Assembly: GCA_964252625.1 (NCBI GenBank)
Contig: CAXUOA010000006.1
Coordinates: 1 to 32,060 of the forward strand
Direction of reading: 5' to 3'
DNA: 32,060 bases
From: an uncultured Acetobacteraceae bacterium
GTDB taxonomy: Bacteria; Pseudomonadota; Alphaproteobacteria; Acetobacterales; Acetobacteraceae
Shown here: positions 6,705-31,986 of the stretch, piece after piece
How the letters are laid out: each line of letters begins with the position of its first letter
How positions within the stretch are numbered: position 1 is the stretch's first letter
Program-made: the position numbers and the translations under genes
The notes under the pieces: model-generated
Told to the model about the DNA's origin: nothing
Seen by the model: only the letters and a program-made list of their open reading frames with translations
The model's database searches: none

Positions 6705-7034
6705 TCAGACGTGACGGGCGAGCTTGTGGGCGGTGCGAAGCAGGAAGGCGCGGTCTTCGGGATCGCAGCAGCGATAGAGGCGGAGCATCGCCAGCTCGTC
6801 ACCTGTTGCCGGCTCTGTGGGGCTGGCACCTTGTAGCAAGTGTTCGATGGATGCGTCGAGCGCCTCGGCAATACGGGTGATGTTGCCGCGAAGCTGGCCG
6901 GCGCGGTCTGTCTCCCACTGGGCGACGGCACTGCGGCTTACGCCGCAGGCGGCTGCGAGGTCATCCTGGGTGAGGCCGCGGGCGCGTCGGAGGGCGCGGA
7001 TACGGGCGCCGACGCTGTGTGTTTCATCCTGCAT
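6705..7034 (-). CDS. XRE-family HTH repressor (CI-like position)
   Basis: GARIRALRRARGLTQDDLAAACGVSRSAVAQWETDR is an HTH_3 signature. No C-terminal S24 peptidase domain. Converges on gmk with a 13-bp gap. Confidence 0.92.
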   Translation of the reverse strand: MQDETHSVGARIRALRRARGLTQDDLAAACGVSRSAVAQWETDRAGQLRGNITRIAEALDASIEHLLQGASPTEPATGDELAMLRLYRCCDPEDRAFLLRTAHKLARHV

Positions 7035-7135
7035 GCCCGGCAGAGTACGCTAGAGCTACTAACAAATCCAGTTGCTGCTGTTGACAATGTCGTGTCAGTT
7101 CTTCTAACGTCGCTGTTAGCGATGGGGAGGGTGAC
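7035..7135. promoter_or_regulatory. divergent promoter/operator region
   Basis: Perfect TTGACA at 7081-7086. Palindromes TGACA-N6-TGTCA (7082-7097) and CTAAC-N6-GTTAG (7104-7119), plus an extra CTAACA at 7059. RBS GGGGAGG at 7124-7130. Confidence 0.6.
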
Positions 7136-7426
7136 GTGCGGGCACATGTGCATTGGACGCAGGAGTTGGACGAGCGGTTGAAGGCGCTGCGGGAAGCCGG
7201 CGTTACGTGGGACGGGATTGCCGCGGCGATGGGGCTTGGCCGGAACACCGTGCTCGAGCGCGGGCGCAAGATCGGTGCACGGCGGCTGCGTGCGCGTCCG
7301 GTGCCGGCGGTGGAAGAGGCGCGCGACCGGCCGGCCAGGCAGGCCGGGCATCCGGCGACGTGGGGCTTGCTTACGGCCGGCACGCTGCTCGATGGCGAAG
7401 CCTACCCCTATCCCGTCTTTCTTTAG
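7136..7426 (+). CDS. small HTH protein with GcrA-like N-terminus (Cro-like position)
   Basis: WTQELDERLKALREAGVTWDGIAAAMGLGRNTVLERGRKIG resembles the GcrA N-terminal HTH (WT.ER...L..L...G.S...IA..LG..RN.V). Strong RBS, GTG start. Confidence 0.7.
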   Translation: MRAHVHWTQELDERLKALREAGVTWDGIAAAMGLGRNTVLERGRKIGARRLRARPVPAVEEARDRPARQAGHPATWGLLTAGTLLDGEAYPYPVFL

Positions 7427-7435
7427 GAACAAACA

Positions 7436-7927
7436 ATGAACGCATTCGATTTCGCCGCAGAAGGTTTGATGGATGAGGTGCGGCCCGAGCGGGAGCGGGA
7501 GGTGGATTCCGCCTATATCCAGTACCGACTGGAAGAGGCCGGTGCGACGCTGCTGGCGTTGCCCGGGACGGGATACTCGACGCGGTTGAAGGTGAGTCAC
7601 CTGGACGTGGTGCAGGAGGCTTGCGAGGTGCTGGGCGGCGTGTCCGGCTCCGGACAGATCCGGCCGCCCATCCCCTCGGCTTCGCGGATCACGCGCATGG
7701 ACGAGGCGCTGGGTTGGATTGCGCTGATCCCGCGCGAGCGCTACGTGCTTCGCCGCATCGTGGGCGCGCGCTGCCTGGTGAGCCCGGTGACGGAGCGGCA
7801 CTTGTTCTCCTGGCGGCGTCTGGGCGGGGTGATGGGTGCGGACCACAAGGCGGTGCAGCGTTGGCATGCGCAAGGCATCGACATGCTGGTAGCGGCGGTG
7901 GGTGCGTTGCGACGGAACGGGGTGTAG
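7436..7927 (+). CDS. DUF6362-like phage protein, putative late-gene activator or antiterminator
   Basis: RLEEAGATLLALP...PSASRITRMDEALGWI.LI...RRIVGAR...SWRRLG...GADHKAVQRW..GI pattern recognised from alphaproteobacterial prophage DUF6362 proteins. C-terminal HTH-like segment. Sits before the late operon. Confidence 0.65.
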   Translation: MNAFDFAAEGLMDEVRPEREREVDSAYIQYRLEEAGATLLALPGTGYSTRLKVSHLDVVQEACEVLGGVSGSGQIRPPIPSASRITRMDEALGWIALIPRERYVLRRIVGARCLVSPVTERHLFSWRRLGGVMGADHKAVQRWHAQGIDMLVAAVGALRRNGV

Positions 7928-7952
7928 GCGGCGGGATCCGTGTGCTCCTGCC

Positions 7953-8303
7953 TTAATCCCCAGTCTGGCTGAGTGAAAGCGTGTAGCGGCAGCGCGGTGT
8001 GGCCAGAGTGCCTTCTATCCGCCTGCCGGTGAGTTGGCCGTTGAAGGTGATCGGATAGGGTTTTTTGTCTATGCCGGGCAGCGTGGTGCTGGCGGAGAGG
8101 CTTGTCCCGTTGATCGCGCCGGTCAGGTTGAGGGTGCCGTCGGCGGGGGTGACTGTGATGGCATTGCCGCGCCGGGTCAGGGTGGCGCGGGTTTCCGGGT
8201 CACAGGCGCCGGCGATCGGGCGTTGTGGCCCGGTAAAGATACGGGTCTGCTGCATGCCTGTGCAGGCGGTGAGCGGGACCAGGCATAACAACAGAGCGCG
8301 CAT
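7953..8303 (-). CDS. small lipoprotein
   Basis: MRALLLCLVPLTA-C lipobox; beta-rich 116 aa with two further Cys. Confidence 0.75.
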   Translation of the reverse strand: MRALLLCLVPLTACTGMQQTRIFTGPQRPIAGACDPETRATLTRRGNAITVTPADGTLNLTGAINGTSLSASTTLPGIDKKPYPITFNGQLTGRRIEGTLATPRCRYTLSLSQTGD

Positions 8304-8568: not shown

Positions 8569-8676
8569 ATCCGTTTTGTCACGAGCGTCAGGCCAGAAAG
8601 ACCTCATTACGGCGAGCGAGATCGATCTGCTTCTCGATCTGTTCAATTCTTTTCTATGCCAGAGCGATTTTTTTCA

Positions 8677-8706
8677 TTGCCCAGGAACCCCAACTTTCTA
8701 TATATT
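8677..8706 (+). promoter_or_regulatory. candidate sigma70-type late promoter
   Basis: TTGCCC (8677-8682), then TATATA at 16 nt spacing or TATATT at 18 nt. AT-rich context ~140 bp upstream of the first structural gene. Confidence 0.5.
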
Positions 8707-8846
8707 TTGCTTAACGATGGCGGTTTGAGCGAACGACTTCCTCACTGCTTCCGACAGTCTTTTTCTGGTTTGCAGATTAGCGGAGTTCGCTGTTCGGCGA
8801 AACGTGCAGGCGGCATGCCGCCATTTGCTTGTAGATCGGAGAAAGA

Positions 8847-9092
8847 ATGGGTGACGAGGAGCTGACGCCACTGGACGTATTGCTACGGGCGATGCGGCAG
8901 CGATGGCACGAAGGCAAGACGGACGAGGCGGTGGCGCTTGCAAAAGCAGCTGCGCCCTTCATGCATGCGAAGCCAGCGAGCAGCCGGGGGGCAGGCTCGC
9001 TGAGCGGTTTGGGGGGCGACAGGCTGGATGACCTCTGCGCAGCAGCCTTTTACCGAGAGCCGGCTGAAGAGGCAGGTTCGGACGAGTCTTGA
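8847..9092 (+). CDS. putative terminase small subunit (short)
   Basis: RBS GGAGA. LTPLDVLLRAMR...A.ALAKAAAPFMHAK is a motif common in small phage proteins preceding TerL. Overlaps the terL ORF. Confidence 0.6.
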   Translation: MGDEELTPLDVLLRAMRQRWHEGKTDEAVALAKAAAPFMHAKPASSRGAGSLSGLGGDRLDDLCAAAFYREPAEEAGSDES

Positions 9093-10419
9093 AGGCTGGT
9101 CTCGCGTAGCGGTGCGGGGAGCCGGGCAGGCCCCTGCCAAGCACCATTTGCGCATGATTGCCATGTTGGAGGAAGTCGAGCGCGGCAAAATACGGCAGTT
9201 GATGCTGCTGCTGCCACCTGGGTCTGCGAAAAGCACTTACGCAAGCAAGGTGTTTCCGGCCTGGTGGCTGATACGCAACCCGCAGCACTCGGTCATAATG
9301 GCTTGCCACACGGCGCGTCTGGCCGAACATTTCGGGCGCGGCGTGCGGGGGTTGCTGGAGGAACATAACGACTACTTGGACGTGCGTGTAAGCCCCGATG
9401 CGCGCGCGGCCGCGCGGTTTGCGACCGACCAAGGCGGCGAGTTCTTCGGCATCGGCGTGCATGGGGCGGTGACGGGACGGCGCGCTGACCTGGCGATCAT
9501 CGACGACCCGATCAGGAGTTTTGCCGACGCCGAGAGTTTTACGGCGCGCGAGCATCTCTGGGAGTGGTTCCGCTCCGATCTTGTGACGCGGATGAAACCA
9601 CGTGGGCGCATGGTGCTGGTCATGACGCGCTGGCACTCCGATGACCTGGCCGGGCGATTGATCGAGAAGGGTGGGTGGACAGTTCTGCGTTTGCCGGCAC
9701 TGGCCGAGTCTGGCGATCCAATGGGGCGTGCGCCGGGCGAAGCTCTCTGGCCGGCCTGGGAAGACCGGGCCGCTATAGAGGAAAAGCGGGGATTGCTGGG
9801 CGAGCGACAGTTTGCCGCGCTGTTTCAGCAGGCCCCTATGCTGGCTGGCGGTACGCTGTTCGATGCGCGTGCGATGCGCCTGGTGGATGCGGTGCCGGAC
9901 GGCGTTGCCGTGCGGGGCTGGGATCTTGCTGGGACAGCGGATACCTCCGGAGACCCGGATTGGACCGTTGGCGTGAAATTGGTTCGCGACGCCACGGGCG
10001 CCATCTTTGTTGATGACGTGGTTCGGTTCCGTGCGGTTTCGGCCGATGTGGCTGACCGCATCCGGGCGGTGGCTGCGGCGGACGGAAATGCGGTCTCAAT
10101 CGGATTGCCGCAGGATCCGGGTCAGGCGGGCAAGAGCCAGATCATGTTTCTTACGCAGATCCTGGCGGGGTTCCGGGTTGTGGCTTCTCCGGAGACGGGA
10201 TCGAAGGAATTGCGGGCGGTGCCCGTTGCGTCCCAGGTTTCGAATGGTGCGATAGCGATGCGGCGGGCCGCCTGGAACACGGTGTTCCTCGACGAACTGG
10301 CGAATTTTCCGCATGGCCGGAAGGATGATCAGGTGGATGCGCTCGCACGGGCGTTTACCATGTTGCTTGGTGCGAGCGCGCCCGCGCGTTTTACGCGGTC
10401 CTCTTTTTCAGTGCGGTGA
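9028..10419 (+). CDS. terL: terminase large subunit
   Basis: Walker A LLLPPGSAKSTY, Walker B LAIIDDP, motif C VLVMTRWH, nuclease GWDLA and FPHGRKDDQVDA. Alternative start ATG 9154. Confidence 0.95.
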   Translation: MTSAQQPFTESRLKRQVRTSLEGWSRVAVRGAGQAPAKHHLRMIAMLEEVERGKIRQLMLLLPPGSAKSTYASKVFPAWWLIRNPQHSVIMACHTARLAEHFGRGVRGLLEEHNDYLDVRVSPDARAAARFATDQGGEFFGIGVHGAVTGRRADLAIIDDPIRSFADAESFTAREHLWEWFRSDLVTRMKPRGRMVLVMTRWHSDDLAGRLIEKGGWTVLRLPALAESGDPMGRAPGEALWPAWEDRAAIEEKRGLLGERQFAALFQQAPMLAGGTLFDARAMRLVDAVPDGVAVRGWDLAGTADTSGDPDWTVGVKLVRDATGAIFVDDVVRFRAVSADVADRIRAVAAADGNAVSIGLPQDPGQAGKSQIMFLTQILAGFRVVASPETGSKELRAVPVASQVSNGAIAMRRAAWNTVFLDELANFPHGRKDDQVDALARAFTMLLGASAPARFTRSSFSVR

Positions 10420-10511: not shown

Positions 10512-11921
10512 TTGTACCGTACAATTTGCGATCTGCTGCCTGACGACGCCGAGTATTCCGAGCGCACGCGGCAGCTCTCCATCTATCAGAAGATGCTTGA
10601 CGGCAGTTTCTATGATGTGCTGCCTTATGAGTTTCACGAGGAGCGCAGCGCGGCGGGAGAGTATATCCCGTTGCGGCAACGTCGGCCGTCGGTTCGCTAC
10701 GGGCTTGCACGGCTTGTGGTGGAGGACAGCGTAGCCCTGCTGTTCAGTGAAGGGCATTTTCCGGCGTTCGACTCGCCGGACCCGGCGGTGCGAGACGTGC
10801 TGACTGCGATCGTCCGCGAGACGCGTCTGAATACGATCATGGTCGAGGCTGGACTTCGCGGGTCCATCGGGTCGGTCGCCTTGTTGCTGCGGGTGCTGCG
10901 CGGGCGGGTGTTCGTCGATGTGCTGGACACACCCTATCTTTGGCCGCAATGGGCGGCGGATGAGCCTGACACGCTCTGCCGTGTGATTGAACGATACAAG
11001 GTGCGTGGCGCTGATTTGATTGCCCAGGGGTATGCCTTACCGGATAGCGGGGCCACGTACTGGTTCCAGCGCGTCTGGGACGAGGAGTACGAGCGCTGGT
11101 ATGAGCCTTTGGCGGTGGGAAATGCAGGACCGCCGATCGAGGATGCGGCACGCAGCGTGCGGCACGGTTTGGGTTTCGTGCCGCTGATCTGGGTGAAGAA
11201 CTTGCCGGGCGGCCCGGGCGTGGATGGTGCTTGCACGTTCCGTTGTGCAATCGACACGAGTATTGAGATCGACTACCAGTTGAGCCAGGCGGGACGCGGG
11301 CTGAAATACAGTTCCGATCCGACGCTGTTGATACGGGAACCGGCGGGCTTCGACGGTAACATGGTGCGGGGTGCCGCGAACGCGCTGGTGGTAAGCGAGA
11401 AGGGCGACGCCAAACTTCTGGAAATCGGAGGCACAGCAAGCCAGGCGGTCATTGATTACGTCAGGATATTGCGTGAGCTGGCTTTGGAAAGCCTGCACGG
11501 GAACCGGGCCGAGGCTAGCCGGCTGAGTGCGCCGGCGAGTGGGCGCGCGTTGCAGCTGATGAACCAGGGATTGCTTTGGCTGGCGGACAACCTTCGCGTC
11601 AGCTACGGCGAGTGCGCGCTCGTGTCCCTTGCGAAAATGATACTTGCAGCCAGCCAGGTCTATGCCTTGCGGGTGGAAGGTCGCGTGGTGCCGAAGCTGC
11701 CAGCGACCGCGCCGGTGAGCTTGCGCTGGCCGGATTGGTACCCGGATGATGCGCTCGACGGGCAGAGGACGGCGGAGACGCTGATCTCGCTGGTTGCGGC
11801 CGGACAGATGTCTCGCGAGACGGCGATGCGGGTGCTGGCCGCGAGCTACGACATCGAGGATGTGGCGGCCGAGGTGGCGCGCATCGAAGCCGAACAACTG
11901 AAAGCCGAGGGGGCAGGATGA
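10512..11921 (+). CDS. portal protein (SPP1-like)
   Basis: Follows terL; 469 aa. HGLGFVPLIWVKN, SGRALQL and C-terminal MSRETAM...DVAAEVARIEAE are portal hallmarks. TTG start. Confidence 0.88.
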   Translation: MYRTICDLLPDDAEYSERTRQLSIYQKMLDGSFYDVLPYEFHEERSAAGEYIPLRQRRPSVRYGLARLVVEDSVALLFSEGHFPAFDSPDPAVRDVLTAIVRETRLNTIMVEAGLRGSIGSVALLLRVLRGRVFVDVLDTPYLWPQWAADEPDTLCRVIERYKVRGADLIAQGYALPDSGATYWFQRVWDEEYERWYEPLAVGNAGPPIEDAARSVRHGLGFVPLIWVKNLPGGPGVDGACTFRCAIDTSIEIDYQLSQAGRGLKYSSDPTLLIREPAGFDGNMVRGAANALVVSEKGDAKLLEIGGTASQAVIDYVRILRELALESLHGNRAEASRLSAPASGRALQLMNQGLLWLADNLRVSYGECALVSLAKMILAASQVYALRVEGRVVPKLPATAPVSLRWPDWYPDDALDGQRTAETLISLVAAGQMSRETAMRVLAASYDIEDVAAEVARIEAEQLKAEGAG

Positions 11922-12390: not shown

Positions 12391-13719
12391 ATGAGCATTT
12401 CGAATTTCCCGGCGGCGCTGCAGCCCATCATCCAGCAGGGTTTTCTGGAGCGCGAGTTCCAGCAGGCCTTGCGCTCGCGCATTGGCTATCGTGCCTGCGC
12501 GGACCGCGAAGACTTCGCCGTTGGCATAGGTGAGACGCTGACGAAGACGCGGGCCGGATTGAAGCCGGCTGTGACGACGCCACTGGCCGCTTCCACCAAC
12601 ACGAACCTGGACAATGGGCTGATACCAAGCTCGTGGAACGTGGAGCAATTCACGCTCACGCTGAACCATTACGCGGCGACCATGGATCTGAACATGGTCA
12701 CGAGCCGGGTGGGCATTGCCAGCCAGTTCCTGCAGAACGCTTACGTGAACGGCGAGCAGGCCGCGCGCAGCCTCGACGACCTGGCGCGCAACGCTTTGTT
12801 CAACGCGTATTTTGCTGGCAACACTCGGGTGCGAACGACGCTGGCGAGCGCCGGGCCGCAGGTGGCCGTGGATGATATACGCGGTCTCCAGGTCGCTTTC
12901 GTGAACGGCGTGCAGCAGAGCGTGACCTCGGGCAACCCGCTTGTGGTGACGATCGGTTCCGACCTCTATACGCTGATCGGCGTGGGCCCCGACTCCACGA
13001 ACGTCTCGACGGCGCCTGGTGGGCAGAGCGGCGTGCTGACGCTGTCCTCCAACGTGACGGTGAGCGACGCGACGGCTGGCAGCACGGTGCAGGCGGCAAC
13101 AAGTTCGCTCATCCTGCGGCCGAACGCACGCACCAACACCGGGCTGCTGACCACGGGCGACACGCTGTCGATGACAAACATCCTCGACGCCGTGGCGGGG
13201 CTCCGGGTGAATGCTGTGCCGGATATCGAGGGCGCCTACAACTGCTATCTCGATCCCATCAGTGCGCGTCAGCTGTTCGCCGACCAGGACTTCCAGCGGC
13301 TGTTCATCGGTTCGACATCGGCCAATGAGATATTCCGGCCGGGACAGGGTGTGATCAATGAGTTTCTGGGTCTGCGCTTCGTGCTGACCACGGAGTCGTT
13401 CCTGCAGCCGCATCCGACGATTGCCGGTGCTATCGTGCGCCGGCCTATCGTGTGCGGACAGGGCGCGCTGATCGAGGGCGACTTTGCCGGGATGGCGGCG
13501 GATGACGTGGCGCCGAAGGACGCGATCGTCTCCCTTGTCGACAACGTCTGCATGGTGACGCGCGAGCCGATCGACAGGCTGCAGCAGATCATCGCGCAGT
13601 CCTGGTATTGGATCGGCGGTTTTTGCGCCCCGTCCGACACGACGACGAATAGCCTTACGGTTCCGACATCGACGAACGCAAACTTCAAGCGGGCGGTGAT
13701 GATCGAACACATGGGCTGA
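12391..13719 (+). CDS. major capsid protein
   Basis: 442 aa after the scaffold. GETLTKTR, QAARSLDDLARN, Y..Y.DP...RQL..D, EPIDRLQQ...SWYWIGGF fit an HK97-fold capsid. Strong codon bias. Confidence 0.88.
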   Translation: MSISNFPAALQPIIQQGFLEREFQQALRSRIGYRACADREDFAVGIGETLTKTRAGLKPAVTTPLAASTNTNLDNGLIPSSWNVEQFTLTLNHYAATMDLNMVTSRVGIASQFLQNAYVNGEQAARSLDDLARNALFNAYFAGNTRVRTTLASAGPQVAVDDIRGLQVAFVNGVQQSVTSGNPLVVTIGSDLYTLIGVGPDSTNVSTAPGGQSGVLTLSSNVTVSDATAGSTVQAATSSLILRPNARTNTGLLTTGDTLSMTNILDAVAGLRVNAVPDIEGAYNCYLDPISARQLFADQDFQRLFIGSTSANEIFRPGQGVINEFLGLRFVLTTESFLQPHPTIAGAIVRRPIVCGQGALIEGDFAGMAADDVAPKDAIVSLVDNVCMVTREPIDRLQQIIAQSWYWIGGFCAPSDTTTNSLTVPTSTNANFKRAVMIEHMG

Positions 13720-13782: not shown

Positions 13783-14157
13783 ATGCTAACGGATCAGCAG
13801 AAGACCGACATACGCCGGTTTTGCGGCTACCCGGCTTATGGAGCCTCTCCGGCCGGGAATATCGGCTGGCGGTTCTACACGGCCTACGGGTTGCTGGAGT
13901 ATCGGATGAACAACCTCTCCGAAGCGGAAATCGCGGTTGTTCTCGGCTATCTGGCTACGCTGACGCAGTTGGAGATGGCTGTGCCGGCATCGAGCCAGAA
14001 CCTCGACAGCGACGCCGCTGCCACGTGGCGGCATAACCGCGACGAGGTGGCAAACCGTGTGCAGCTTTTTGATAGGTGGTGCCGTCGGCTGTGCGCGTTC
14101 TTTGGCGTACCGCCGGGCGAGGGGCTGGGCTTTTCTGGTGTGAGCTGGACCGTGTGA
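13783..14157 (+). CDS. head-tail adaptor (neck) protein
   Basis: RBS GGAGG; 124 aa helical protein directly after the capsid. Synteny-based call. Confidence 0.65.
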   Translation: MLTDQQKTDIRRFCGYPAYGASPAGNIGWRFYTAYGLLEYRMNNLSEAEIAVVLGYLATLTQLEMAVPASSQNLDSDAAATWRHNRDEVANRVQLFDRWCRRLCAFFGVPPGEGLGFSGVSWTV

Positions 14158-14777
14158 TGGACGCAAGCACGCTGCAGGACCGGATAAGCAAGGGAATGGG
14201 CGCGGCGGCACGCAGGGCGGGAAGCCTGTTCAGCCTGTACCGGCCCCCCGGCATCGTGCAGCCGGTAAGTGCGGGTAACCGGATATTGGACCTGCCCGCC
14301 TTGTTTGCACCGTTTGGCAAGCGGCCGGGCGCGGCCTACGGGCAATCGCTTTGGAGCGGCACCTTCGATTCATCCTACACCCAGCCGGGCGATTATCTTG
14401 CGAGTGCATCGGCGACTTACTTCATTGCCAGCCAGCTACCCGGCCTGGACGTGCAATGTGTGCTGACGAACCGCGTGGTCTCCATTGTGCGGCCGACGCC
14501 AGCGATGCAGGGGGGTTACAGCGGATTCTTCTCCACGCCAGGCGAGGTGGTGATTACCGCGTGGCCCGCGTGTCTGCTGGAAAGCGGCGGACATGCCGAG
14601 GGGGGCCGGGTGGGTGAGACAGTCTTCGGCGGCTGGACGCTGTTGCTGCCGACGTTGCCGACGCGTCCGCAGACAGCCGACGTGGTGAGCGACGACATCG
14701 GTGGCGCTTACGTGGTGGGAAGCGCTGAGCAGAGCGTGCTCGGGTGGCGGCTGACGGTGCGCCAAGTAGGTGCTTGA
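14157..14777 (+). CDS. head closure / neck protein
   Basis: TGATG coupling at 14155-14159; beta-rich 206 aa. Synteny-based call. Confidence 0.6.
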   Translation: MDASTLQDRISKGMGAAARRAGSLFSLYRPPGIVQPVSAGNRILDLPALFAPFGKRPGAAYGQSLWSGTFDSSYTQPGDYLASASATYFIASQLPGLDVQCVLTNRVVSIVRPTPAMQGGYSGFFSTPGEVVITAWPACLLESGGHAEGGRVGETVFGGWTLLLPTLPTRPQTADVVSDDIGGAYVVGSAEQSVLGWRLTVRQVGA

Positions 14778-14801
14778 GGTGCGCTCTTAGGAGTTTCCGA
14801 T

Positions 14802-15611: not shown

Positions 15612-15622
15612 AGGAGACGGTG

Positions 15623-15787
15623 ATGAAGCGTGTGCTGCTGGTGGTGCGGCCGTTCGGACCATATGCGATCGGCGACCTGATAAGCGAGGCAAGGGACATT
15701 CGCAGAGTGCTCACCGGCGCACACGCGCATGATGTGATACGGGTGGCGGCGCCGATGGCCGCAACCGACAAGCGGGAGGAGACCTGA
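15623..15787 (+). CDS. 54-aa protein before the tail sheath (absent from the ORF track)
   Basis: RBS AGGAG at 15612-15616. MKRVLLVVRPFGPYAIGDLISEARDIRRVLTGAHAHDVIRVAAPMAATDKREET fills the gap exactly; the stop is 3 nt before the sheath ATG. Confidence 0.75.
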   Translation: MKRVLLVVRPFGPYAIGDLISEARDIRRVLTGAHAHDVIRVAAPMAATDKREET

Positions 15788-17362: not shown

Positions 17363-17400
17363 ATATTTGCCGGGTGCCGGTGGTTCGAGGACCGCCGGTT

Positions 17401-17453
17401 GGGCGCAAAAATCTCTTGCTTCTTTTCTCCGGGATAGAAGGCCTGGCTTTCTT
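17401..17453 (-). repeat. single degenerate arm of family A repeat between sheath and tube
   Basis: Reverse complement AAGAAAGCCAGGCCTTCTATCCCGGAGAAAAGAAGCAAGAGATTTTTGCGCCC matches 10-62 at 40 of 53 ungapped positions (counted by hand). Confidence 0.75.
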
Positions 17454-17480
17454 CGGATATCTGGTTTGGGGGAACACTGA

Positions 17481-22133: not shown

Positions 22134-22147
22134 AGGGAAGCCGGTGC

Positions 22148-22516: not shown

Positions 22517-22517
22517 C

Positions 22518-23639: not shown

Positions 23640-23640
23640 C

Positions 23641-24282
23641 ATGCAGGGAGATGTGGCGGACTTTGTGAGCCGCCTGCGACGTGTGTTGCCGGCGCGCTGG
23701 TTTGGCGACACGGCGCCGATTACCGACGCCGTCCTGAGCGGCTTTGGTGTAGCCTGGTCGGCTGTCTACACGCTGATCGAAGTGGTGCGCGCACAGGCCC
23801 GGCTGCTTACTTCGAGCGGCGGTTTCGTGGACAGTTTCGCACAGGACTTTTGTGGTGCGGCATTGCCGAGGCGCAGCGGTGAGAGCGACGCCAGCTATAT
23901 CCAGCGTATCGGCTACGAGTTACTGCGGCCGCGTGGGACGCGGACGGCGATGACGACGGCGATGTTGCAGCTGACCGGTCAGCCGGCAATCGTGTTCGAG
24001 CCCGCGCGGCCGATGGACACCGGCGGGTATGCCACAGGCGGTGCGGGATACGGGGTGGCCGGCGGTTATGGCAACCTGAAGCTCGCCTATCAAAGCTTTC
24101 TGAAAGTAAGGCGCCCGCATGGCGCCGGTATAGCACAGCTCGCCGGCTATCGCACCGGCGGTGTGCTCGCCTACGGAAGCTTGGCGTTGGTGCAGACGGG
24201 CGTGCCTGACAGCAGCATATACGCTTCTGCCGCCTCCATCTTGCCGGCCGGCTCTACGGTCTGGGTCCAAATACAGGGTTAA
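23641..24282 (+). CDS. baseplate wedge protein (gpI / Mu gp48-like)
   Basis: RL.T..G.F.D..A.DF.G..LPRR.GESD..Y..RI...LLRPRGTR; follows baseplate J. Confidence 0.8.
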   Translation: MQGDVADFVSRLRRVLPARWFGDTAPITDAVLSGFGVAWSAVYTLIEVVRAQARLLTSSGGFVDSFAQDFCGAALPRRSGESDASYIQRIGYELLRPRGTRTAMTTAMLQLTGQPAIVFEPARPMDTGGYATGGAGYGVAGGYGNLKLAYQSFLKVRRPHGAGIAQLAGYRTGGVLAYGSLALVQTGVPDSSIYASAASILPAGSTVWVQIQG

Positions 24283-24322: not shown

Positions 24323-25570
24323 ATGGATCGTCAGATCGTGTATCCGGGCAGCATTCCGCTTGATACGGACTTGCTGAATGCCCAGCGCAATACGATGATT
24401 GCCTTGGGTTACCTGTCGCAAATGGTGCTCGGCACGAACACCGTCGCTGACGGCCTGGCATGTACCCCGACGTCGCCCGCGTCAATGTCGGTCAATGTCG
24501 GTGCTGGCAGCATCACGCAGTTTGGCGTCATCGACACGACGCCTTTCGGCTCGCTTCCTGCTTTGCCGACGAACCCCCTTGTAAGGCTTGGGATAAATAT
24601 CGGCAGTACCAGCTTTGCCCTTACGGCGCCGACGGCGTCGGGGCAGGTGATCAACTATTTGGTCGAGGCGACACTGTCCGAGGCCGATGCCGGGGCGACG
24701 GTGTTGCCTTACTACAATGCCGCGAACCCCGCGCAGCCGTATAGCGGGCCTGGCAATGACGGTGCGGCGCAGATGACGGAGCGCGTGCAGTCCGTGCAGC
24801 TCTCGGTGAAGCCGGGACCCGCTGTGGCGATTGGGAGCCTAAGTTTGCCGCCGGTTGATGCGGGCTGGGTGGGGCTCTACGTGGTGAGCGTCGCCTACGG
24901 CCAGCAATCGATCACAGCGGCCAACATCACCACGCTTTCTACGGCTCCTTTCGTAAGTTGGAAGTTGCCGCAATTGACGCCAGGCACGCATAACCTGGCG
25001 GTGTTTCAGCCGACGACGCAGGGTGTCTGGACGGCGCCCGCCAGCGTGAGCGGCGTGCGGCTACGTATTTGGGGAGGAGGCGGCGCAGGCGGCAACGGTT
25101 TTGGCAGTGCAGGTGGTGGCGGTGCCGGGAGCGGTTATGCTGAGGGCTACGTTGGCGTAACGCCGGGGCAATCTTTTAATGTGCTTGTCGGCAACGGCGG
25201 CGCGGGCTCCGGAGCAAGCGGTGGGACTTCAAGTTTTGGTAGCGTGGCCTCCGCGAGCGGAGGTGCGGCTGGTGCGAGTGGCACGTCGAGCACGGCTGGG
25301 ACCGGTGGCTCGACCGGAGGCATTGGCTCTGGCCTGGCTCTGGCAATCTCGGGCAGCACCGGCGGCGACGCATTGAGCCTGGGCAGCAACTGGCTAAGTG
25401 GCACAGGTGGGGGCTCACACGGCAGTACGGGCGGCTTGCCGGTGAGCGGTGCTGCGAGCGGGCTGCTTGCCGGCAAAAACGGCGTGGGGCCAGGCAGCGG
25501 CGCCGGCGGCGGCGTGGGCGGCGGTCTTGGTGGGCAAGGCGGCCCGGGGCTTGTGCTGGTTGAGTGGTGA
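24323..25570 (+). CDS. tail fibre with glycine-rich C-terminal domain
   Basis: RBS GGAGA; MDRQIVYPG start. C-terminal WTAPA.V..VRLRIWGGGGAGG...G.GGPGLVLVEW is a Gly-rich domain typical of phage fibres. Confidence 0.8.
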   Translation: MDRQIVYPGSIPLDTDLLNAQRNTMIALGYLSQMVLGTNTVADGLACTPTSPASMSVNVGAGSITQFGVIDTTPFGSLPALPTNPLVRLGINIGSTSFALTAPTASGQVINYLVEATLSEADAGATVLPYYNAANPAQPYSGPGNDGAAQMTERVQSVQLSVKPGPAVAIGSLSLPPVDAGWVGLYVVSVAYGQQSITAANITTLSTAPFVSWKLPQLTPGTHNLAVFQPTTQGVWTAPASVSGVRLRIWGGGGAGGNGFGSAGGGGAGSGYAEGYVGVTPGQSFNVLVGNGGAGSGASGGTSSFGSVASASGGAAGASGTSSTAGTGGSTGGIGSGLALAISGSTGGDALSLGSNWLSGTGGGSHGSTGGLPVSGAASGLLAGKNGVGPGSGAGGGVGGGLGGQGGPGLVLVEW

Positions 25571-25637
25571 GGGCTCGCGCTCGTACAATCTCTGCCAGTG
25601 TCAGCCGAAAACATCAGTTGCTCTTAGGAGTTTTCGC

Positions 25638-26120
25638 ATGGGAACACCCGCGCAATTTGTCTGGCAGGCGAGTACGTCGCGCGTTGTCGTGCCGGATGGT
25701 TTTGGACCCTTTCCGAGGGGGACCTGGCAAACTGTTCCACCGCCCTTGTCATGGCCGGTCAAGGATCCGGGCGATACGCTGGACTACGTTGTCGATCTTT
25801 CTCGCGCGCTTGCCGGGGATACGGGTGATGGTATCGCAACGCTGGACGTGGCGATCTCGCCGAACAACAGCGGTGACCTGAGCTTGACGTTCTCGCGGGC
25901 GGATGGCGATCGCGCCATCTTGTGGCTTACCGCGGGTTTCACAGGGACGACTTACGCGGTGACGGTGGTGGTAGGCACCCAGAGCGGGCGGACGCTGTCG
26001 CGCACGATCGGGTTGCCGGTCATGACATTGGCGACACCCGCCCCGTTCGGTAACGATATCACGGATCAATCAGGGACGCCCCTGACTGACCAGACGGATA
26101 ACCCGATCACAGTAGATTAG
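25638..26120 (+). CDS. putative fibre/tailspike adaptor protein
   Basis: RBS AGGAG. KDPGDTLDYVVD and W...G..GTTY.VT....T.SGRTL.R give an Ig-like pattern. Acidic TDQ..P.T repeats at the C-terminus. Confidence 0.6.
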   Translation: MGTPAQFVWQASTSRVVVPDGFGPFPRGTWQTVPPPLSWPVKDPGDTLDYVVDLSRALAGDTGDGIATLDVAISPNNSGDLSLTFSRADGDRAILWLTAGFTGTTYAVTVVVGTQSGRTLSRTIGLPVMTLATPAPFGNDITDQSGTPLTDQTDNPITVD

Positions 26121-26215
26121 CCTTGCCAGCAACAATCGGTCGTGCTGCGGGCTGATTGGTTTCGGCCCGCGACTTGCGGGCATACGCGGCTGTTGATGCA
26201 GGAAATGGGGCTTGT

Positions 26216-28486
26216 ATGCCGACAATACCGCAGTTACCGAGCGCCACTGCAACAGGTGCGCAAGACGAGCTTCCCGTCAGTCAAGGCGGAATCACGCGTG
26301 CCGTGACAGTGGCCGAATTGCTGAGTGGCACACAGCAGGCGATTGAAGTTCCAAGCCCGAGTATTCTTGGGCGCGCGTCTCTGGGCCCTGGTGGGCCGGA
26401 GGCATTGGCGCCTGGCCTGGGGTTGGCTGTGCAGAACGCATCATTGCTGGCCAACGGCGCTGATCATGCGGCGTTCGTGCAGGAGAGTGCGTTTGCGGCC
26501 GGTGACGAGGCGATCATCAATTCCAGCGGCACGCCGAAGCGTTTGCCGCTTCCCGGTCTGCGCGCGCTGTTCAGCGGTGGGACGAACGTGTCTATCGACA
26601 CGAACGGCGTGATCGCCGCGTCCACTGACCCCAGCGTGTCCGGAAGCTTGACCGCGCTCTCGCAGACTGTTTCCGGCGCCGAGGCGAGCATAGCGGTACT
26701 TGGCTCCAAGATACCGACGGGCGGCTTCGCGACCGTCAACAGCACTGGCCAGGTGACATCGCCCGTGGCGGGCGACGTAAGCCTGGGGACTGTTCTGACA
26801 GCTCCCGGCGGGTCCTCACGCACGCTCGCGCAGCGTGCAGCCGACCGCATAAACGTACTGGACTTCGGGGCGCAGCTTGGTGGGCCAGACTGCACGGCCG
26901 CGTTCAACGCGGCTATCGCGGTCATGCCGGCTAGCGGGGGCGAGCTTTACCTGCCGCCAGGCGATTACTGGCTGCAGAGCTCCATCGTGATTAGCGGCAA
27001 AGTCATCTCCATACAGGGTGCTGCACGCGGCGTGACGCGCATTCATCTTGCGCATACCGGCATCGGCTTCGACATCGCACCCGGCAACGTACTCAGTAGA
27101 GTCATGTTGGGCGGCTTCTCCCTCTATGCCGAGAGCCAGAACGGACAGACGGCGGCCGGGATCCGAATCACTTATCCGTCCACATCTTCGTTCGGCTATG
27201 TCTCGGCAAGCATCCATGAGATAGAGTTCTTCAGCTACCCAAATAGTGCCAACGGCACCGCGCCTTTCCCGCAAACCTTCCTCCGTGGCATGGTGCTGAA
27301 TGGTTGCTGGAGCACGCAGATCGCTAATGTCTCGTGGTTCGGACCGCCGGCAGCTCCCGGCACCACTTCGTCAGCATTGGTGGAGTTGAACGGCTCCGTC
27401 GATACCAGACTCCATGGCGTGCAAGCCTACTATGGGAACGCCGTCGTATTGCAGACCGGATATTGCGAGGGCATATATCTCAGCTCTCCACTGGTAGTGG
27501 GCGCCGACTACCTGATGCTGCAGACCGACGAGACGAAGTGGCCAGGCTATGCCGTGGGCAGATCGATGCTTCTTGGGCTGTGGGTGGCGCAGGGTGAGGT
27601 AAATACCAGCCTTGGTGTGGTCCAGCTGTCTAACGTGACAGACGGCTTCTTCTCCGGTCTCGACATCACACGTGACACAGGGCCTAACACCTCGCAGGTG
27701 TTTTTTAACCTGACCAACGTCTCGAACTTTCACGTCAGCGGATGCAATTTCGTTGGTGGCCCGAACGGCGGTACGCCGGCCGACGTGGCCTTCTCGTTTA
27801 CGAGTACTGTGAACTCATCAAGCAACATCATAGATGGCTGCCACTTCGAGGATATGGCGACAGTCATCCAGATCAACGGTGCAAACGGCACGGTTGGCCT
27901 GACGACATACGGTCTCCATCTCGGGAACGTGCCGCTAGCGACCGCTATAGTGGACGCGACGCCAGCCACTTCTGGCGATTACCTTTCCTTCATTACGCCG
28001 TCACAGTCCAACACACCGGCAGGGTGGGGCAATTCTAAGGACCATGTGTTCTCGAACCAAGGTGGCACGACCCTTTTCCGGATCACGAACGTCGCCAATG
28101 CCGCCAACTACTTGCGGCCGCAGGCCGCGACCTCAGCCAACCCGCCCACGTTGTGCTTTGACGGCTCCGACGGAACGATCAACGGTGTGATCCAGACGAA
28201 GGGTGGCAACCTGTTCATCAACGCAGCCGGGGGCACGTCCAACAGCGGTAATATGGCCAGCTTGATGAACACGCCGGGAGCGACAAACTGGCTGGTTTTC
28301 CAGAATGCCACGTCCGGTAACCTCAGTCTGATAGAGACGAATGTTGGCGGTTTGGGAATTCAGCCCAAAGGCGCGTTGTGGCTCTCGCCAAGCAGTGGTT
28401 TGTTTGTTCCCGGCTTGCCGACAGTCAGGCCAGCAGCGGGGTCCAGCCAGGTTTGGAACAATAACGGAGTTCTGAGTATCGCGTAG
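26216..28486 (+). CDS. tailspike / polysaccharide depolymerase (pectate-lyase-3-like beta-helix)
   Basis: INVLDFGA...DCTAAFNAAI...GGELYLPPGDY marks the beta-helix entry. N-terminal anchor TIPQLP.A....DELPVSQGG.T; 756 aa. Confidence 0.82.
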   Translation: MPTIPQLPSATATGAQDELPVSQGGITRAVTVAELLSGTQQAIEVPSPSILGRASLGPGGPEALAPGLGLAVQNASLLANGADHAAFVQESAFAAGDEAIINSSGTPKRLPLPGLRALFSGGTNVSIDTNGVIAASTDPSVSGSLTALSQTVSGAEASIAVLGSKIPTGGFATVNSTGQVTSPVAGDVSLGTVLTAPGGSSRTLAQRAADRINVLDFGAQLGGPDCTAAFNAAIAVMPASGGELYLPPGDYWLQSSIVISGKVISIQGAARGVTRIHLAHTGIGFDIAPGNVLSRVMLGGFSLYAESQNGQTAAGIRITYPSTSSFGYVSASIHEIEFFSYPNSANGTAPFPQTFLRGMVLNGCWSTQIANVSWFGPPAAPGTTSSALVELNGSVDTRLHGVQAYYGNAVVLQTGYCEGIYLSSPLVVGADYLMLQTDETKWPGYAVGRSMLLGLWVAQGEVNTSLGVVQLSNVTDGFFSGLDITRDTGPNTSQVFFNLTNVSNFHVSGCNFVGGPNGGTPADVAFSFTSTVNSSSNIIDGCHFEDMATVIQINGANGTVGLTTYGLHLGNVPLATAIVDATPATSGDYLSFITPSQSNTPAGWGNSKDHVFSNQGGTTLFRITNVANAANYLRPQAATSANPPTLCFDGSDGTINGVIQTKGGNLFINAAGGTSNSGNMASLMNTPGATNWLVFQNATSGNLSLIETNVGGLGIQPKGALWLSPSSGLFVPGLPTVRPAAGSSQVWNNNGVLSIA

Positions 28487-28489
28487 GAG

Positions 28490-28921
28490 GTGCAAATGCC
28501 ACAGAGCGACATGCACCTTCTCTTTCAACAAATGGGAGAGGTGCTGACCGGCATACGCGGTCTGCATGACACGATCAATATCCGTCAGGCCCAAGCGGAG
28601 CAGCTGCACGACATTGTAAGGGCCGACCTGGCCACGCTGCGACGTGATCAGCGTGAGCTGGAAGAGAAGTTCGAGTGCATCGTCTCCATCGTGCAGCATG
28701 AAATGGAGACGCTTCGGTCAGGGACTGCAGAGCATGCGCGCTCGATCGGGGAGATGGTTCACGCCATCGATGCGTTACGCCGGCCGATCTCGGAAATACT
28801 GAGCCTGAAATCGCGTGTTGCAGGTTTGGTTTTCGGGGCTGGGCTGATCGGCAGCGCAGCACTTTGGCTGGCTGAGCCGATCTACGGCTGGCTCGTGAGC
28901 GAGAGCTTCCTGAAGCGCTAA
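28490..28921 (+). CDS. coiled-coil protein with C-terminal TM (holin-associated type)
   Basis: Heptad-rich body followed by hydrophobic VAGLVFGAGLIGSAALWLA. Confidence 0.55.
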   Translation: MQMPQSDMHLLFQQMGEVLTGIRGLHDTINIRQAQAEQLHDIVRADLATLRRDQRELEEKFECIVSIVQHEMETLRSGTAEHARSIGEMVHAIDALRRPISEILSLKSRVAGLVFGAGLIGSAALWLAEPIYGWLVSESFLKR

Positions 28922-28969
28922 GACCGGCACCGTCTGGCACCACCATAATCAAACAGATCGGGGATCTCA

Positions 28970-29602
28970 ATGCGAACACATGTCGTGGGCGCGTTAGCGC
29001 TCGGCTTGCTGGCGACGCCGGCAGCGGCTGGAAGCTCTTACATCATGCCCGATGGCACCAACCGGGCACCCGCGGTCACCTTGCATTGCGTGACAGCTGC
29101 CGGGACCGCGGTGGCTTGCGGGACGGCGGCGAACCCGCTCGTGGTGAGCGCACCGGCAGGTGCCTCCTCATCCGCTAACCAGGTAATGCAGCTCGGTGCC
29201 GAGCAGGCCTCTGCCCAGGGTATAGGGACTGTGAGCGACTCGGCGTTTACCGGTGGCCAAGGCTCTATGGTTTCCTTGCTCAAGGCACTTTGGTCTGTGA
29301 CCTCGGCGGGCATTCCTGCGCTGCCCACCGGAGGCACACTTACGTCTCGTACATTGAGCCTACCGGCGGGTGTCAGCACGCAAGTCTTCGCCAGCAATGG
29401 TGCCCGTCGCTATGTGTCATTTCAGGTGCCGCTGTCGGGCGGCGTGTGGATCAATGTCATGGGTGGCATAGCAGGGCCGAATGGCATGGATTGCGCGTAT
29501 TTTGCTGCTGGTAGCTTTTATGAAAGCGGCTCCTTCATCAATCGAGGTGCCATCACGGTCTACTCGTCTTCCGCCGTCATGTTCTCGGCATGGGAGAGCT
29601 GA
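28970..29602 (+). CDS. secreted hypothetical protein
   Basis: Sec-type signal MRTHVVGALALGLLATPAAA; C-terminal beta-sandwich (ASNGARRYVSFQ). Confidence 0.7.
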   Translation: MRTHVVGALALGLLATPAAAGSSYIMPDGTNRAPAVTLHCVTAAGTAVACGTAANPLVVSAPAGASSSANQVMQLGAEQASAQGIGTVSDSAFTGGQGSMVSLLKALWSVTSAGIPALPTGGTLTSRTLSLPAGVSTQVFASNGARRYVSFQVPLSGGVWINVMGGIAGPNGMDCAYFAAGSFYESGSFINRGAITVYSSSAVMFSAWES

Positions 29603-29604
29603 CC

Positions 29605-31392
29605 ATGCGCGGACGTCTTCTACAAATAATCCTCGGCAGCGCATTGCTACTGCCGCCTACGGGCGCCCAGGCTGGACTTGTTACACCGCCCAAGTCGCTG
29701 CGCGCCCTTGCGGGACGGCAAGTTTGGGTACCGGTCTGCTCGCGCCGCGGCGTAAACGGATCGAGCGCCTGGTTCGACAACACGAATACGGCTGTCATGG
29801 ACCAGGTGGCGTGCGTGTCACCGTCCTATGGCACAGTAACAGCATTAAAACTCGTGTACGCCGCGTTCGACATGCCGCAGCAGGGTGAGGCCGACCGCCC
29901 CGTGACAGCCACTGGCACCGCGGCAATCTACATACCGTCAGCCAACGCCAACACCGTATTGGCAAACGGATCCGTCGCCTCGGGTTCGACAACACTCAAT
30001 TTCGCATCCACGACGCTGGGTGCGAATGGCATCAGTGTCGGCCAACTCATAAGCAGCAGCGGCGGCGGCATTGCTGCAAACACCTATGTTGCCTCCGTGG
30101 TAAACAGCTTCGTCGCCGGATCTGGGAACCAACCGTCGGGGACGGTCGTCACGATGAGTAATGCGACGACGGCGACCACGGCTGCAGGACAGCCTATGAG
30201 CTTCAGTGGCTCGTTGATCCCGGCAAAGTTTGGTGGAAAGCGGCAGTTCACGATCGAGCCCGCACATGATGTCGTCACGTCCGACCCAGTCGCCGTGGAG
30301 CTGCTTGCCGGCACGACGTTTTTTATCCGAAGCTTCGCCACAGTAACGGCATCGGGGTTGCAATTGATGGATTACCCGGGGTCAGGTTCTCGCCTGACCG
30401 GGGAGTTCGACAACAGGAGTACGACGCCACTCGACCAGACAATGGTGCCGCTTGCACTTTCGAACACCGGCGGAGGCTACTGGTGCCCGGTCGCGGTGCT
30501 CGGGCTAGTTACCGTGCCGTTCGGCCAGCCGAGCCCCGGCGCGGTTTTGATCCTCGGCGACAGCATTGCGGCTGGTACGGGTGACAACGCGGACGGGCTG
30601 GGTCTGCAAGGCTACATTCAGCGCAGTCTGGAGAATAACATTGGGTTCGTTACTGCGGCGCGTGGGTCGACGACGGCGTTCTCTGTCGTGGCGCACGGTG
30701 ATGGGCAGTACGCGTTATCCGTTGATACCGGCATTACCGACGTGCTTCTGGAGGACGGCCGCAACGACATCTTGAGCTTTCAGGTAAGCGACACCCAGCT
30801 GGAGACCTACATTACCCAGATCGCCACGCGCTATGTGCAGACGGGCAAACGCGTTTGGTGCTTCACCGTTCCGCCGACAACGCAGAGTAATGACGGCTGG
30901 GTGACTCTGGCTAACCAGAGCTGGACAGTGGCGGTTGCGAACACGGGAAGCACGGCAACGAGCGCTGGCAGCGTGTCCGTGCCGATGGTAAGCCTGGCTA
31001 ATCTCGCGGTCGGTCAGGCCGTCTCAGGCACAGCCATTGCAGCTGGGAGTGTGATCAGCGCGCTCGGTTCGGGTGCCATCACGCTTTCAGTGCCGCTCAC
31101 GGCAGCCTTGCCGGCCGGAACGAAACTCAGTTTCGGCTCCGGCAGCGCATCAGCCTCGGCTGCCGAGATGTATCGGCAATCGTACAATAGCTATTTGCGC
31201 CAACATGCCGCCGTCCTGGGATGCAGCGGCGTGGTTGATCCAGACAAGGTGTTTTCGGACCAGGGTGGGTCCGGAAAATGGCGCGTGGACCTGGGGACGG
31301 CCAGCGCAGATGGCGTGCACCCAGCGGCTGTACTTCATCAGGCTGCGGTGAATGCCGGACTGATTACGCCGGCAATGTTCCAGGCGCCCTAA
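29605..31392 (+). CDS. SGNH/GDSL hydrolase with signal peptide
   Basis: Block I LILGDSIAAG, block II ARGS, block III EDGRND, block V DGVHP. Signal MRGRLLQIILGSALLLPPTGAQA. Confidence 0.85.
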   Translation: MRGRLLQIILGSALLLPPTGAQAGLVTPPKSLRALAGRQVWVPVCSRRGVNGSSAWFDNTNTAVMDQVACVSPSYGTVTALKLVYAAFDMPQQGEADRPVTATGTAAIYIPSANANTVLANGSVASGSTTLNFASTTLGANGISVGQLISSSGGGIAANTYVASVVNSFVAGSGNQPSGTVVTMSNATTATTAAGQPMSFSGSLIPAKFGGKRQFTIEPAHDVVTSDPVAVELLAGTTFFIRSFATVTASGLQLMDYPGSGSRLTGEFDNRSTTPLDQTMVPLALSNTGGGYWCPVAVLGLVTVPFGQPSPGAVLILGDSIAAGTGDNADGLGLQGYIQRSLENNIGFVTAARGSTTAFSVVAHGDGQYALSVDTGITDVLLEDGRNDILSFQVSDTQLETYITQIATRYVQTGKRVWCFTVPPTTQSNDGWVTLANQSWTVAVANTGSTATSAGSVSVPMVSLANLAVGQAVSGTAIAAGSVISALGSGAITLSVPLTAALPAGTKLSFGSGSASASAAEMYRQSYNSYLRQHAAVLGCSGVVDPDKVFSDQGGSGKWRVDLGTASADGVHPAAVLHQAAVNAGLITPAMFQAP

Positions 31393-31432
31393 CGCGTCTG
31401 TTTCAGCGACACTAACGACAGTAGAGGGGAAG

Positions 31433-31672
31433 ATGGAAGACCTGCGCGCATGGCTGCGGCAGCCGACGACGGTTGCCGGGATTTCCGCGCTGATCGCCAC
31501 GATCAGCGCGCTGTTGATGGACCAGATCGCATGGGCACAGGCGGTGCCGATTCTCGTGGGCAGTGCTGTCTCGATGCTGCTGCCGGACAATACGGGCGCA
31601 CACGAACAGGCTCAGCAGCTTGCAAGCGAGATCATAACAGAATTCACCAGCAAAAAGGGACCAGCACAATGA
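31433..31672 (+). CDS. putative holin (two TM helices)
   Basis: 79 aa; WLRQPTTVAG then two hydrophobic segments and a charged C-terminus. RBS GAGGGG. Confidence 0.6.
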   Translation: MEDLRAWLRQPTTVAGISALIATISALLMDQIAWAQAVPILVGSAVSMLLPDNTGAHEQAQQLASEIITEFTSKKGPAQ

Positions 31673-31986
31673 TAATCCGTATGAGCCAGGTGTGCGTGGC
31701 AGGGGTGCTTGCCTTCGGAACTCTCTCGGCGTGCACGACAGCCAGACCGGAAATCACCACGGACCTCAACGCCGGTTTGGAGGTGGCGGCTGCATTGCAA
31801 AGCGCCTATGCGGCGCGGCCGAGCGCCGATCCCAAGATCGTGGCAGACTTGACCCGCCTTACGGCAGGCGCCCAGGCCGCAGTCGCTTCCTGGGAAGCTT
31901 CGAGCAGTTCGTCCAACGAGGCTCTGGCCAACGCGGCCATCTCGGGGCTCGTGGCGTATGAGGCCTCAGCTCATATCACCCCGTAA
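31669..31986 (+). CDS. lipoprotein, possibly spanin-like
   Basis: ATGA overlap with the holin-like gene. MIIRMSQVCVAGVLAFGTLSA-C lipobox; Ala-rich helical body. Confidence 0.65.
   Translation: MIIRMSQVCVAGVLAFGTLSACTTARPEITTDLNAGLEVAAALQSAYAARPSADPKIVADLTRLTAGAQAAVASWEASSSSSNEALANAAISGLVAYEASAHITP

Follow-up and report, generated by a model that had tools for sequence, protein, structure and literature searches.

What does a phage-like gene cluster do when it carries head, tail and fibre genes and shows no means of excising or replicating itself? The question is raised by positions 6705-31986 of a 32,060-nucleotide window, the whole stretch of DNA analysed here, which is the entire contig C6 of an uncultured Acetobacteraceae genome (82.6% complete). 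A first-pass annotation had proposed that this cluster is a new, independently domesticated gene transfer agent (GTA). From its genes and their relatives, the cluster appears to be the vertically inherited, intact late operon of an old temperate myovirus, and there is good support for its having been domesticated into a working particle system. Its likely role is that of a GTA, a reading to which we assign a probability of roughly 0.5. We favour it because the packaging genes are constrained like the tail genes, because the predicted small terminase (TerS) is truncated as in known GTAs, and because the RcGTA type is rare in the family.

The cluster contains 33 annotated open genes covering 94% of its span, in agreement with the roughly 30 intact head and tail genes first counted, and consists of head, contractile-tail and fibre genes together with regulators. 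PHROG profiles matched the large terminase (TerL; E = 1e-91), portal (1e-12), major head protein (6e-33), sheath (4e-45) and baseplate wedge (9e-49), as well as hub, spike, gp25 and fibre proteins, and both Pfam and PHROGs identified a GDSL esterase. As first noted, no integrase, excisionase, replication or recombination family was found among 36 proteins searched against Pfam or 33 against PHROGs, and the window contains no tRNA. The host genes fabG-acpP-fabF-mltG, a glycine-rich repeat gene and gmk precede the cluster, whose first gene, an XRE regulator on the minus strand, converges on gmk with a measured stop-to-stop gap of 13 bp, exactly the early edge first described. Integrase or replication genes might have been expected just beyond position 32060. 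The end of contig C6 overlaps contig C19 by 37 exact bases, within a repeat that has 8 copies and that begins no other contig. Contig C19 carries MFS, lexA and CcrM-type methylase genes, in the order kept by intact congeners, and no phage-like gene past the cluster end. The cluster shows several traits of the GTA class, namely a phage-derived head, portal and terminase on the chromosome, no integration, excision or replication module, and vertical inheritance with purifying selection. The integrase, att sites and replication genes of an active temperate prophage were not found, and the capsid, portal and terminase, all present and constrained, separate the cluster from tailocins and extracellular contractile injection systems.

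We searched for the capsid gene in 401 genomes of the family and found it in 200, spread over 72 of 118 genera and as a single match in 178 of the 200; 17 of 24 congeners carried it, and none of 16 genomes from other families did. About 40 kb around the capsid was fetched for 56 loci, picked for good assembly. The cluster lies beside gmk in all 10 congeners first fetched and in two neighbouring genera, and to that extent the proposed gmk anchor holds; it does not extend to the rest of the family. A family-wide anchor was rejected, as, of 80 genomes from other genera, 79 had gmk but only G089 and G131 had it within ~7 kb of the capsid.

A tree of six proteins (portal, capsid, neck, sheath, tube and baseplate J) fell into two groups. 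In the window's group, 19 of 27 splits coincided with splits of the host rpoB tree, whereas 999 shuffles gave a mean of 0.15 and a maximum of 3; 12 of 14 strongly supported host splits were recovered, with no strong conflict. This comparison used 30 genomes with rpoB (without G010, which has no rpoB, and without the basal G146 and G151), a single host marker, query-anchored alignments and FastTree supports, and its congruence is to be read within those limits. The second group (45–57% identity, with other terminases) tracks its hosts at 9 of 15 splits in 18 genomes, yet does not sit where those hosts sit in the tree. Because the Komagataeibacter phage phiKX1 nests within it, this group probably comprises the copies of acetic acid bacteria, and its combination of host tracking and misplacement suggests a second domestication or a replacement. 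In this second clade (L065-L080, L246-L249, L258-L263, L271-L282) several genera have the cluster at one of two conserved positions, next to hsp33-argF-argD or bacA-mlaD; gmk is near it only in G080, inverted.

We next consider selection. In five intact pairs, compared over 6,500–7,900 codons, the ratio of nonsynonymous to synonymous substitution rates (dN/dS) was 0.07–0.17 for the element and 0.10–0.16 for flanking host genes, values that are rough because dS is near 1. Terminase, portal and capsid were among the most constrained genes (dN/dS 0.02–0.16). No stop or frameshift interrupted 529 of 540 core-gene slots (18 genes in 30 genomes), a count that omits an insertion sequence in the capsid gene of G014; long-read errors may explain some of the 11 affected slots. 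TerL motifs were intact in nearly all of 37 sequences. No integration, excision or replication module was found in the window or in 30 relatives, apart from a primase-like gene in G137, as read with an in-house gene caller that may miss genes. There was no integrase among 195 unique flanking open reading frames of at least 130 amino acids, and none among 111 family representatives, where only an IS3 transposase appeared. A capsid tree that follows host rpoB, together with dN/dS of 0.07–0.17, points to a domesticated element and not a dying prophage. The structural-gene trees and dN/dS values, comparisons that had been called for at the outset, bear out independent domestication and vertical inheritance under purifying selection. 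The cluster is also unrelated to RcGTA: the RcGTA marker TIGR02217 is absent from the source genome and was found in 12 of 401 family genomes, and a Caulobacter control was positive.

That the loci are ordinary cryptic prophages, left by repeated integration of a common phage and now decaying, is largely refuted for the window's clade and very improbable. Prophage genes can also show purifying selection, flanking genes differ between genera, and prophage-like relatives do exist in the family, namely G151, which has an early gene of the phiKX1 kind, and G249, which has a full-length tape measure. The 14 phage proteins used as queries, which detected this G151 gene, also gave a weak match to an exonuclease in G146, matched DnaB in G358, and at four loci of the second group detected tape-measure or late genes. 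Decaying integrants would be hard to reconcile with a single copy, family-deep congruence, the shared loss of all early genes, regulators kept at distant loci, and 98% of core genes intact.

The ancestry of the module can be traced to known phages. Only 7 of 50,697 phage records matched the capsid: four Rahariannevirus, phiKX1, phiKX2 and one distant Streptomyces phage. The capsid and sheath share 59% and 54% identity with those of Rahariannevirus (the Ralstonia phages Raharianne, Albius and Hyacinthe) and 49% and 52% with those of the Komagataeibacter phages phiKX1 and phiKX2, and the portal-scaffold-capsid-neck-sheath-tube-baseplate module is colinear in the cluster, Rahariannevirus and phiKX1. 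The first-pass annotation had taken a scaffold without prohead protease as distinguishing, a view that we withdraw; these phages show the same portal-scaffold-capsid order with no annotated protease gene, so a protease-less head is inherited and no sign of domestication. In contrast to the cluster, which lacks the whole early region, Raharianne and phiKX1 are 46–54 kb long and have early modules; the Raharianne annotation lists genes for replication and recombination, that of phiKX1 an integrase. The TerS/TerL pair also differs from theirs, and both the tape measure (362 versus 636 and 742 amino acids) and the scaffold (134 versus 180 and 206) are shorter. In IMG/VR, the best 80 of at least 596 closest contigs were all 32 kb or less. 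Tails of 99 nm are listed for the host of phiKX1 (PMC8566455, Table 1); scaled from this phage, the cluster's tail would be ~50 nm long.

In order to assess how DNA might be packaged, we compared the 81-residue product of the gene overlapping terL with its homologues. Its identity as TerS is based on gene position and on the label of one record, which calls a family member terminase small subunit; its match to phrog_15261 is limited to positions 37–76. In 59 matches from fetched loci the core motif stands at the very start of the gene, and at least 14 distinct loci have an in-frame stop no more than 15 codons upstream. Among 150 profile matches, the core was preceded by at least 22 residues in 48, of which 15 had a basic arm of the GGxRxGAGR type, six of them covering the PHROG from positions 6–9 on. 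Both complete phage genomes examined have a family member directly before terL, with the basic extension present. A single-sequence model of a long homologue was poor (predicted local distance difference test score, pLDDT, 62), and a viral fold search was uninformative. These comparisons show that the predicted TerS is truncated relative to phage homologues, a GTA-like hallmark: small terminases of known GTAs are described as all lacking the DNA-binding domain (PMC11841831; also PMC7947584). The missing arm would be the part that confers DNA binding or specificity.

The packaging machinery may also bear on a set of internal deletions. The portal stops at residue 268 in 4 of 26 genomes of the genus: in these four congeners the junction is nucleotide-identical, running from portal codon 266 into GDSL codon 421 with the loss of 19.6 kb, and a search of the rest of each genome found no sheath. 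In another genus, G189 has the same right end within 1–2 bases and a left end near portal codon 33. The ends map to window positions 11308 and 30865 (loci L264, L265, L268, L343, L357). Carriers are interleaved with intact genomes on flanking-gene trees, with support of 98–100 for the pair G002/G434, and of 99 for G006/G001 in the terL-portal tree. Three carriers compared had dS of ~1 and dN/dS of 0.06–0.09 in their out-of-frame remnants. A single old shared deletion with decaying remnants was ruled out on these grounds; the deletions look either recent and recurrent or like an old polymorphism refreshed by recombination. Our guess is that a nuclease, perhaps the terminase, cuts at a fixed place and that the ends are then joined. 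The G007/G016 pair (L005/L006 versus L019/L020) shows a different kind of change: dS was 0.5–0.7 in head genes and 1.0–2.7 in neck and tail genes, a jump that suggests in-place exchange of the tail block.

Such a common right end in five genomes of two genera could be the scar of packaging from a fixed site in or near the element, with spread within species resembling lateral transduction. We consider this self-directed or locally biased packaging rather improbable. Tree congruence argues against wide spread, TerS has no arm of the kind thought to give specificity, and no DNA-level conservation beyond codon constraint was visible at the breakpoints. No excised-circle junction was found: one narrow pattern had no match in viral_contigs, and 11 matches in metagenome_contigs were in no case similar to window proteins. 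The deletion junction itself had no metagenome_contigs match, with a pattern too narrow even for G434.

We then examined regulation. The DUF6362 protein is predicted to be a Q21-like antiterminator that activates the late genes. Its structure model (pLDDT 79) had no Foldseek match at E≤0.001. A second-look alignment placed Q21 antiterminator entries at ranks 1–5 (Z 8.8–9.5 over 109–119 residues, root-mean-square deviation 3.3–4.2), and a wide structure search returned domains of the sigma region 4 type (Z 8.3) as well as a Q complex (Z 7.5, 108 residues). Of 32 genomes in the window's group that bear the cluster, 31 had a strong DUF6362 orthologue, and only 8 had it within ~10 kb of the capsid; it was found in 4 of 24 capsid-negative family genomes, 0 of 15 second-group genomes and 0 of 3 outside the family. 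This split from the structural cluster resembles the layout described for gafYZ and CcGTA (PMC11150451). Regulator genes also persist where no capsid gene was found, at L269 (G024), L358 (G017) and L359 (G048, a single-contig genome). The DNA sequence fits the Q21-like prediction: upstream of the TerS gene, a TTGCCC/TATA promoter is followed by a NANNNT element, both motifs being present in 33 of 47 distinct regions; such an arrangement is reported to be required for antitermination by BrrG in BaGTA (10.1101/2024.11.20.624540). The promoter divergent from the XRE gene keeps TTGACA and CTAAC boxes when 49 upstream regions are aligned, and the CTAAC boxes are likely XRE operators. A GAAC-N7-GAAC box, which we take to be the alphaproteobacterial LexA site, occurs in 10 of the 49. 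No CtrA box was found in 49 early or 48 late promoter regions.

Lysis was assigned less completely than first thought. A holin-like protein and a lipoprotein can be named from sequence features, and no endolysin family was found in the window's cluster with Pfam or PHROGs. GH108 was not found in the source genome (G000; no positive control rang) or in G006, G007 and G131. In other genera, 13 fetched loci have a GH108 endolysin at the tail end of the cluster; G087 has one in its cluster, and in G015 it lies ~150 kb away. Because this lineage's cluster lacks an endolysin, release would take help from unlinked host genes. CcGTA, as described, has no holin or endolysin homologue either (PMC9632790).

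Taken as a GTA, the cluster would work as follows. Relief of predicted XRE repression would release the operon, and the DUF6362 protein would switch on the late genes by antitermination. The terminase, with its arm-less predicted small subunit, would fill heads with host chromosomal DNA by a non-specific headful mechanism, and the particles would deliver that DNA to other cells through a short contractile tail. A fuller account, which we hold more tentatively, is that of a family-wide contractile-tailed GTA derived from a Rahariannevirus/phiKX1-like myovirus, independently of RcGTA and probably twice. It would fill RcGTA's place in the family and, by convergence, would share its design of a truncated TerS, a Q-like antiterminator and scattered regulators; deletions ending at one fixed nucleotide would switch it off repeatedly and yield natural non-producers.

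The likeness to RcGTA and CcGTA (Rhodogtaviriformidae) lies in a vertically inherited structural cluster, the absence of replication and integration genes, a TerS described as lacking a DNA-binding domain (PMC7947584), to which the truncated predicted TerS would correspond, and a repressor and antiterminator that are reported to be often unlinked (PMC11150451). Unlike RcGTA, the cluster has a contractile tail, 25 kb in place of 14 kb, DUF6362 in place of GafZ, and an XRE regulator in place of the LexA-like RogA, and its DNA transfer is predicted from genes alone. BaGTA of Bartonella is similar in its independent domestication, its Q21-like antiterminator BrrG and the NANNNT element after the late promoter (10.1101/2024.11.20.624540). 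It is described as coupled to a run-off replication module and as having non-contractile or no tails (PMC9662315), neither of which applies here; no replication gene was found in the window or its continuation on contig C19.

The main rival to the GTA reading is a particle of the type of PBSX and its relatives in Bacillus. Their conserved locus is described as encoding terminase, portal, head and contractile tail under an XRE repressor and a sigma-like activator, and their particles as bactericidal and filled with random host DNA of 9–13 kb (PMC8347963). The argument that an element unable to replicate must package host DNA and hence be a GTA was overstated, since it skips this case, in which random host DNA is packaged and kin are killed. 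The cluster shares the PBSX layout of a head and contractile tail, XRE and sigma-like regulators and no replication genes. If it is likewise a domesticated operon whose headed particles take up host DNA incidentally and whose tail kills kin, then fibre sets that differ between genera, the higher dS of the G007/G016 tail block, as expected from swapping, and the GAAC-N7-GAAC box (with its presumed LexA identity) would fall into place. We nevertheless regard such a killer as unlikely. Killing needs only the tail, whereas terminase, portal and capsid are all under strong constraint; the small terminase of the PBSX-like element is described as long (214 amino acids) and not truncated (PMC8347963); and fibres within the genus are conserved at 61–89% identity, not hypervariable. 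The PBSX-like element of B. pumilus, likened here by its description, differs further in its protease, its 227-nm tails, its phylum and its standing as a known killer (PMC8347963), and Bacillus phages appear only as 25% sheath matches to the cluster. An anti-phage device, in which the proteins interfere with or decoy related myoviruses and move no DNA, is less probable still: related active phages (phiKX1/2) do infect the family, but a full set of genes from head to fibre, kept by selection and served by a late promoter of its own, is rarely needed for interference.

Several observations weigh against the GTA reading. The cluster is known here from its gene content. The element is missing from about half of the family, at least five relatives have large internal deletions, an insertion sequence interrupts the capsid gene of G014, and a primase-like gene lies upstream in one relative, G137. 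Single-gene trees show 0–4 strong conflicts (capsid 3, baseplate J 4), and copies of the acetic acid bacteria type form a separate clade that contains a real phage, phiKX1. The match of DUF6362 to Q21 is of middling Z and has no Foldseek counterpart at the cut-off used. Formally recognised GTAs with described tails are reported to be non-contractile or tailless (PMC9662315), and PBSX shares the same logic yet is a killer (PMC8347963).

If the cluster is a GTA, such agents have arisen independently once more, for the first time with a contractile tail in the literature searched, and one can ask directly which of their traits are convergent. Should it prove a PBSX-like killer, an antibacterial particle would have been overlooked despite being widespread. 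Peat, lichen and acid-soil communities are dominated by this family, about half of which carries the element; cultured hosts include Acidisoma silvae, Acidisphaera rubrifaciens and Rhodopila globiformis, and the predicted repressor, activator and promoter offer a ready induction strategy. The site-identical recurrent deletions provide natural knock-outs for asking why costly systems persist. Our literature search, which covered few subscription journals, found no description of the element as a domesticated family. Contigs from a Sphagnum "core virome" (PMC12142844) are described as Acetobacteraceae regions with structural, packaging and lysis genes and no excision or replication modules, one of them with an S24 peptidase. 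DHOD is among their flanking host genes, as in the cluster's flank, and from these flanking genes the contigs would be the same element. That account treats them as possibly degraded prophages, with no test of inheritance, selection or function described.

Table. Features of the cluster in window coordinates, with the evidence for each.
Feature	Coordinates	Strand	Evidence and remarks
XRE (HTH_3) repressor	6705..7034	-	Pfam E 1e-12; dN/dS 0.02–0.20; likely holds the element off
Divergent early promoter region	7035..7135	.	Conserved TTGACA at 7081 and repeated CTAAC boxes; 49 upstream regions aligned
96-aa GcrA-like helix-turn-helix protein, in Cro-like or activator position	7136..7426	+	Pfam GcrA E 0.002, below cut-off; conserved
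DUF6362 protein, predicted Q21-like antiterminator (late-gene activator)	7436..7927	+	Pfam; predicted structure; orthologue distribution
Small lipoprotein	7953..8303	-	Signal-like N-terminus with Cys; no Pfam or PHROG family
Late promoter TTGCCC-18-TATATT	8677..8720	+	CCCCA core between hexamers; NANNNT -10-like element downstream; conserved
Predicted small terminase, 81 aa	8847..9092	+	phrog_15261 positions 37–76 only; without the basic N-terminal arm of phage homologues
Large terminase	9028..10419	+	Walker A/B, coupling motif and nuclease aspartates intact
Portal (SPP1-like)	10512..11921	+	Pfam/PHROG; left end of recurrent deletion ~11308
Scaffold, 134 aa	11918..12322	+	Phage relatives 180 and 206 aa
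Major capsid protein	12391..13719	+	phrog_1357
Four neck/head-completion genes (13783, 14160, 14802, 15620)	13783..15787	+	By position; colinear in Raharianne and phiKX1
Sheath, tube, tail chaperone(s), 96-aa gene	15791..18680	+	Sheath phrog_23; tube and chaperone by position
Short tape-measure protein, 362 aa	18677..19765	+	Ala/Pro-rich middle; termini resemble 636/742-aa phage proteins
Baseplate block: tube initiator, LysM, hub, spike, gp25-like, baseplate J, wedge	19765..24282	+	Pfam/PHROG
Fibre, gp77-like adaptor, 757-aa second fibre/spike, 143-aa membrane-anchored protein, 210-aa protein	24326..29602	+	
GDSL/SGNH esterase	29605..31392	+	Pfam/PHROG; right end of recurrent deletions at codon 421 (30865)
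Holin-like 79-aa protein and 105-aa lipoprotein	31433..31986	+	Two weak hydrophobic segments; spanin-like by position; sequence features only, no family match

A PDB sequence search with cluster proteins gave two weak terminase matches only, and none for the capsid or second fibre. At ~18233-18410, a short conserved frame overlaps the end of the tail chaperone gene and has homologues in many loci and in phiKX1; it is probably a second tail chaperone made by frameshifting. The primase/polymerase-like gene of G137 (L053:273-1631) lies just upstream of the regulator in a genome with three TerL copies, and G137 may keep part of an ancestral replication module.

The closest TerL in the phage collection (47%) belongs to the Acetobacter "phage" phiAO1 (LC644971), which has the same short TerS family and no integrase. 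Its particle is small and mitomycin-induced, with a 43-nm head and a 47-nm tail. It is a separate element, with a different capsid (DUF2184) and tail set from the cluster and with host stress genes (catalase, superoxide dismutase, peroxiredoxin) interspersed inside the module; although published as a phage, it may represent another particle locus that has been domesticated. Several capsid-negative genera with small genomes gave TerL matches (E 1e-101 to 1e-115) that may belong to this element.

Dispersed palindromic intergenic repeats of two families, with many genome copies, lie at window positions 1-204 and 31983-32060 and account for the contig breaks at the window ends. The lexA gene is two genes 3' of the cluster in the window's genus and two neighbouring genera. 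Between mltG and gmk, 4379-5764 on the minus strand encodes a 461-residue Gly/Ser/Thr-rich repeat protein with no Pfam family, possibly a secreted surface protein; its site is conserved in the genus and a neighbour, and with dN/dS of 0.2–0.46 it evolves faster.

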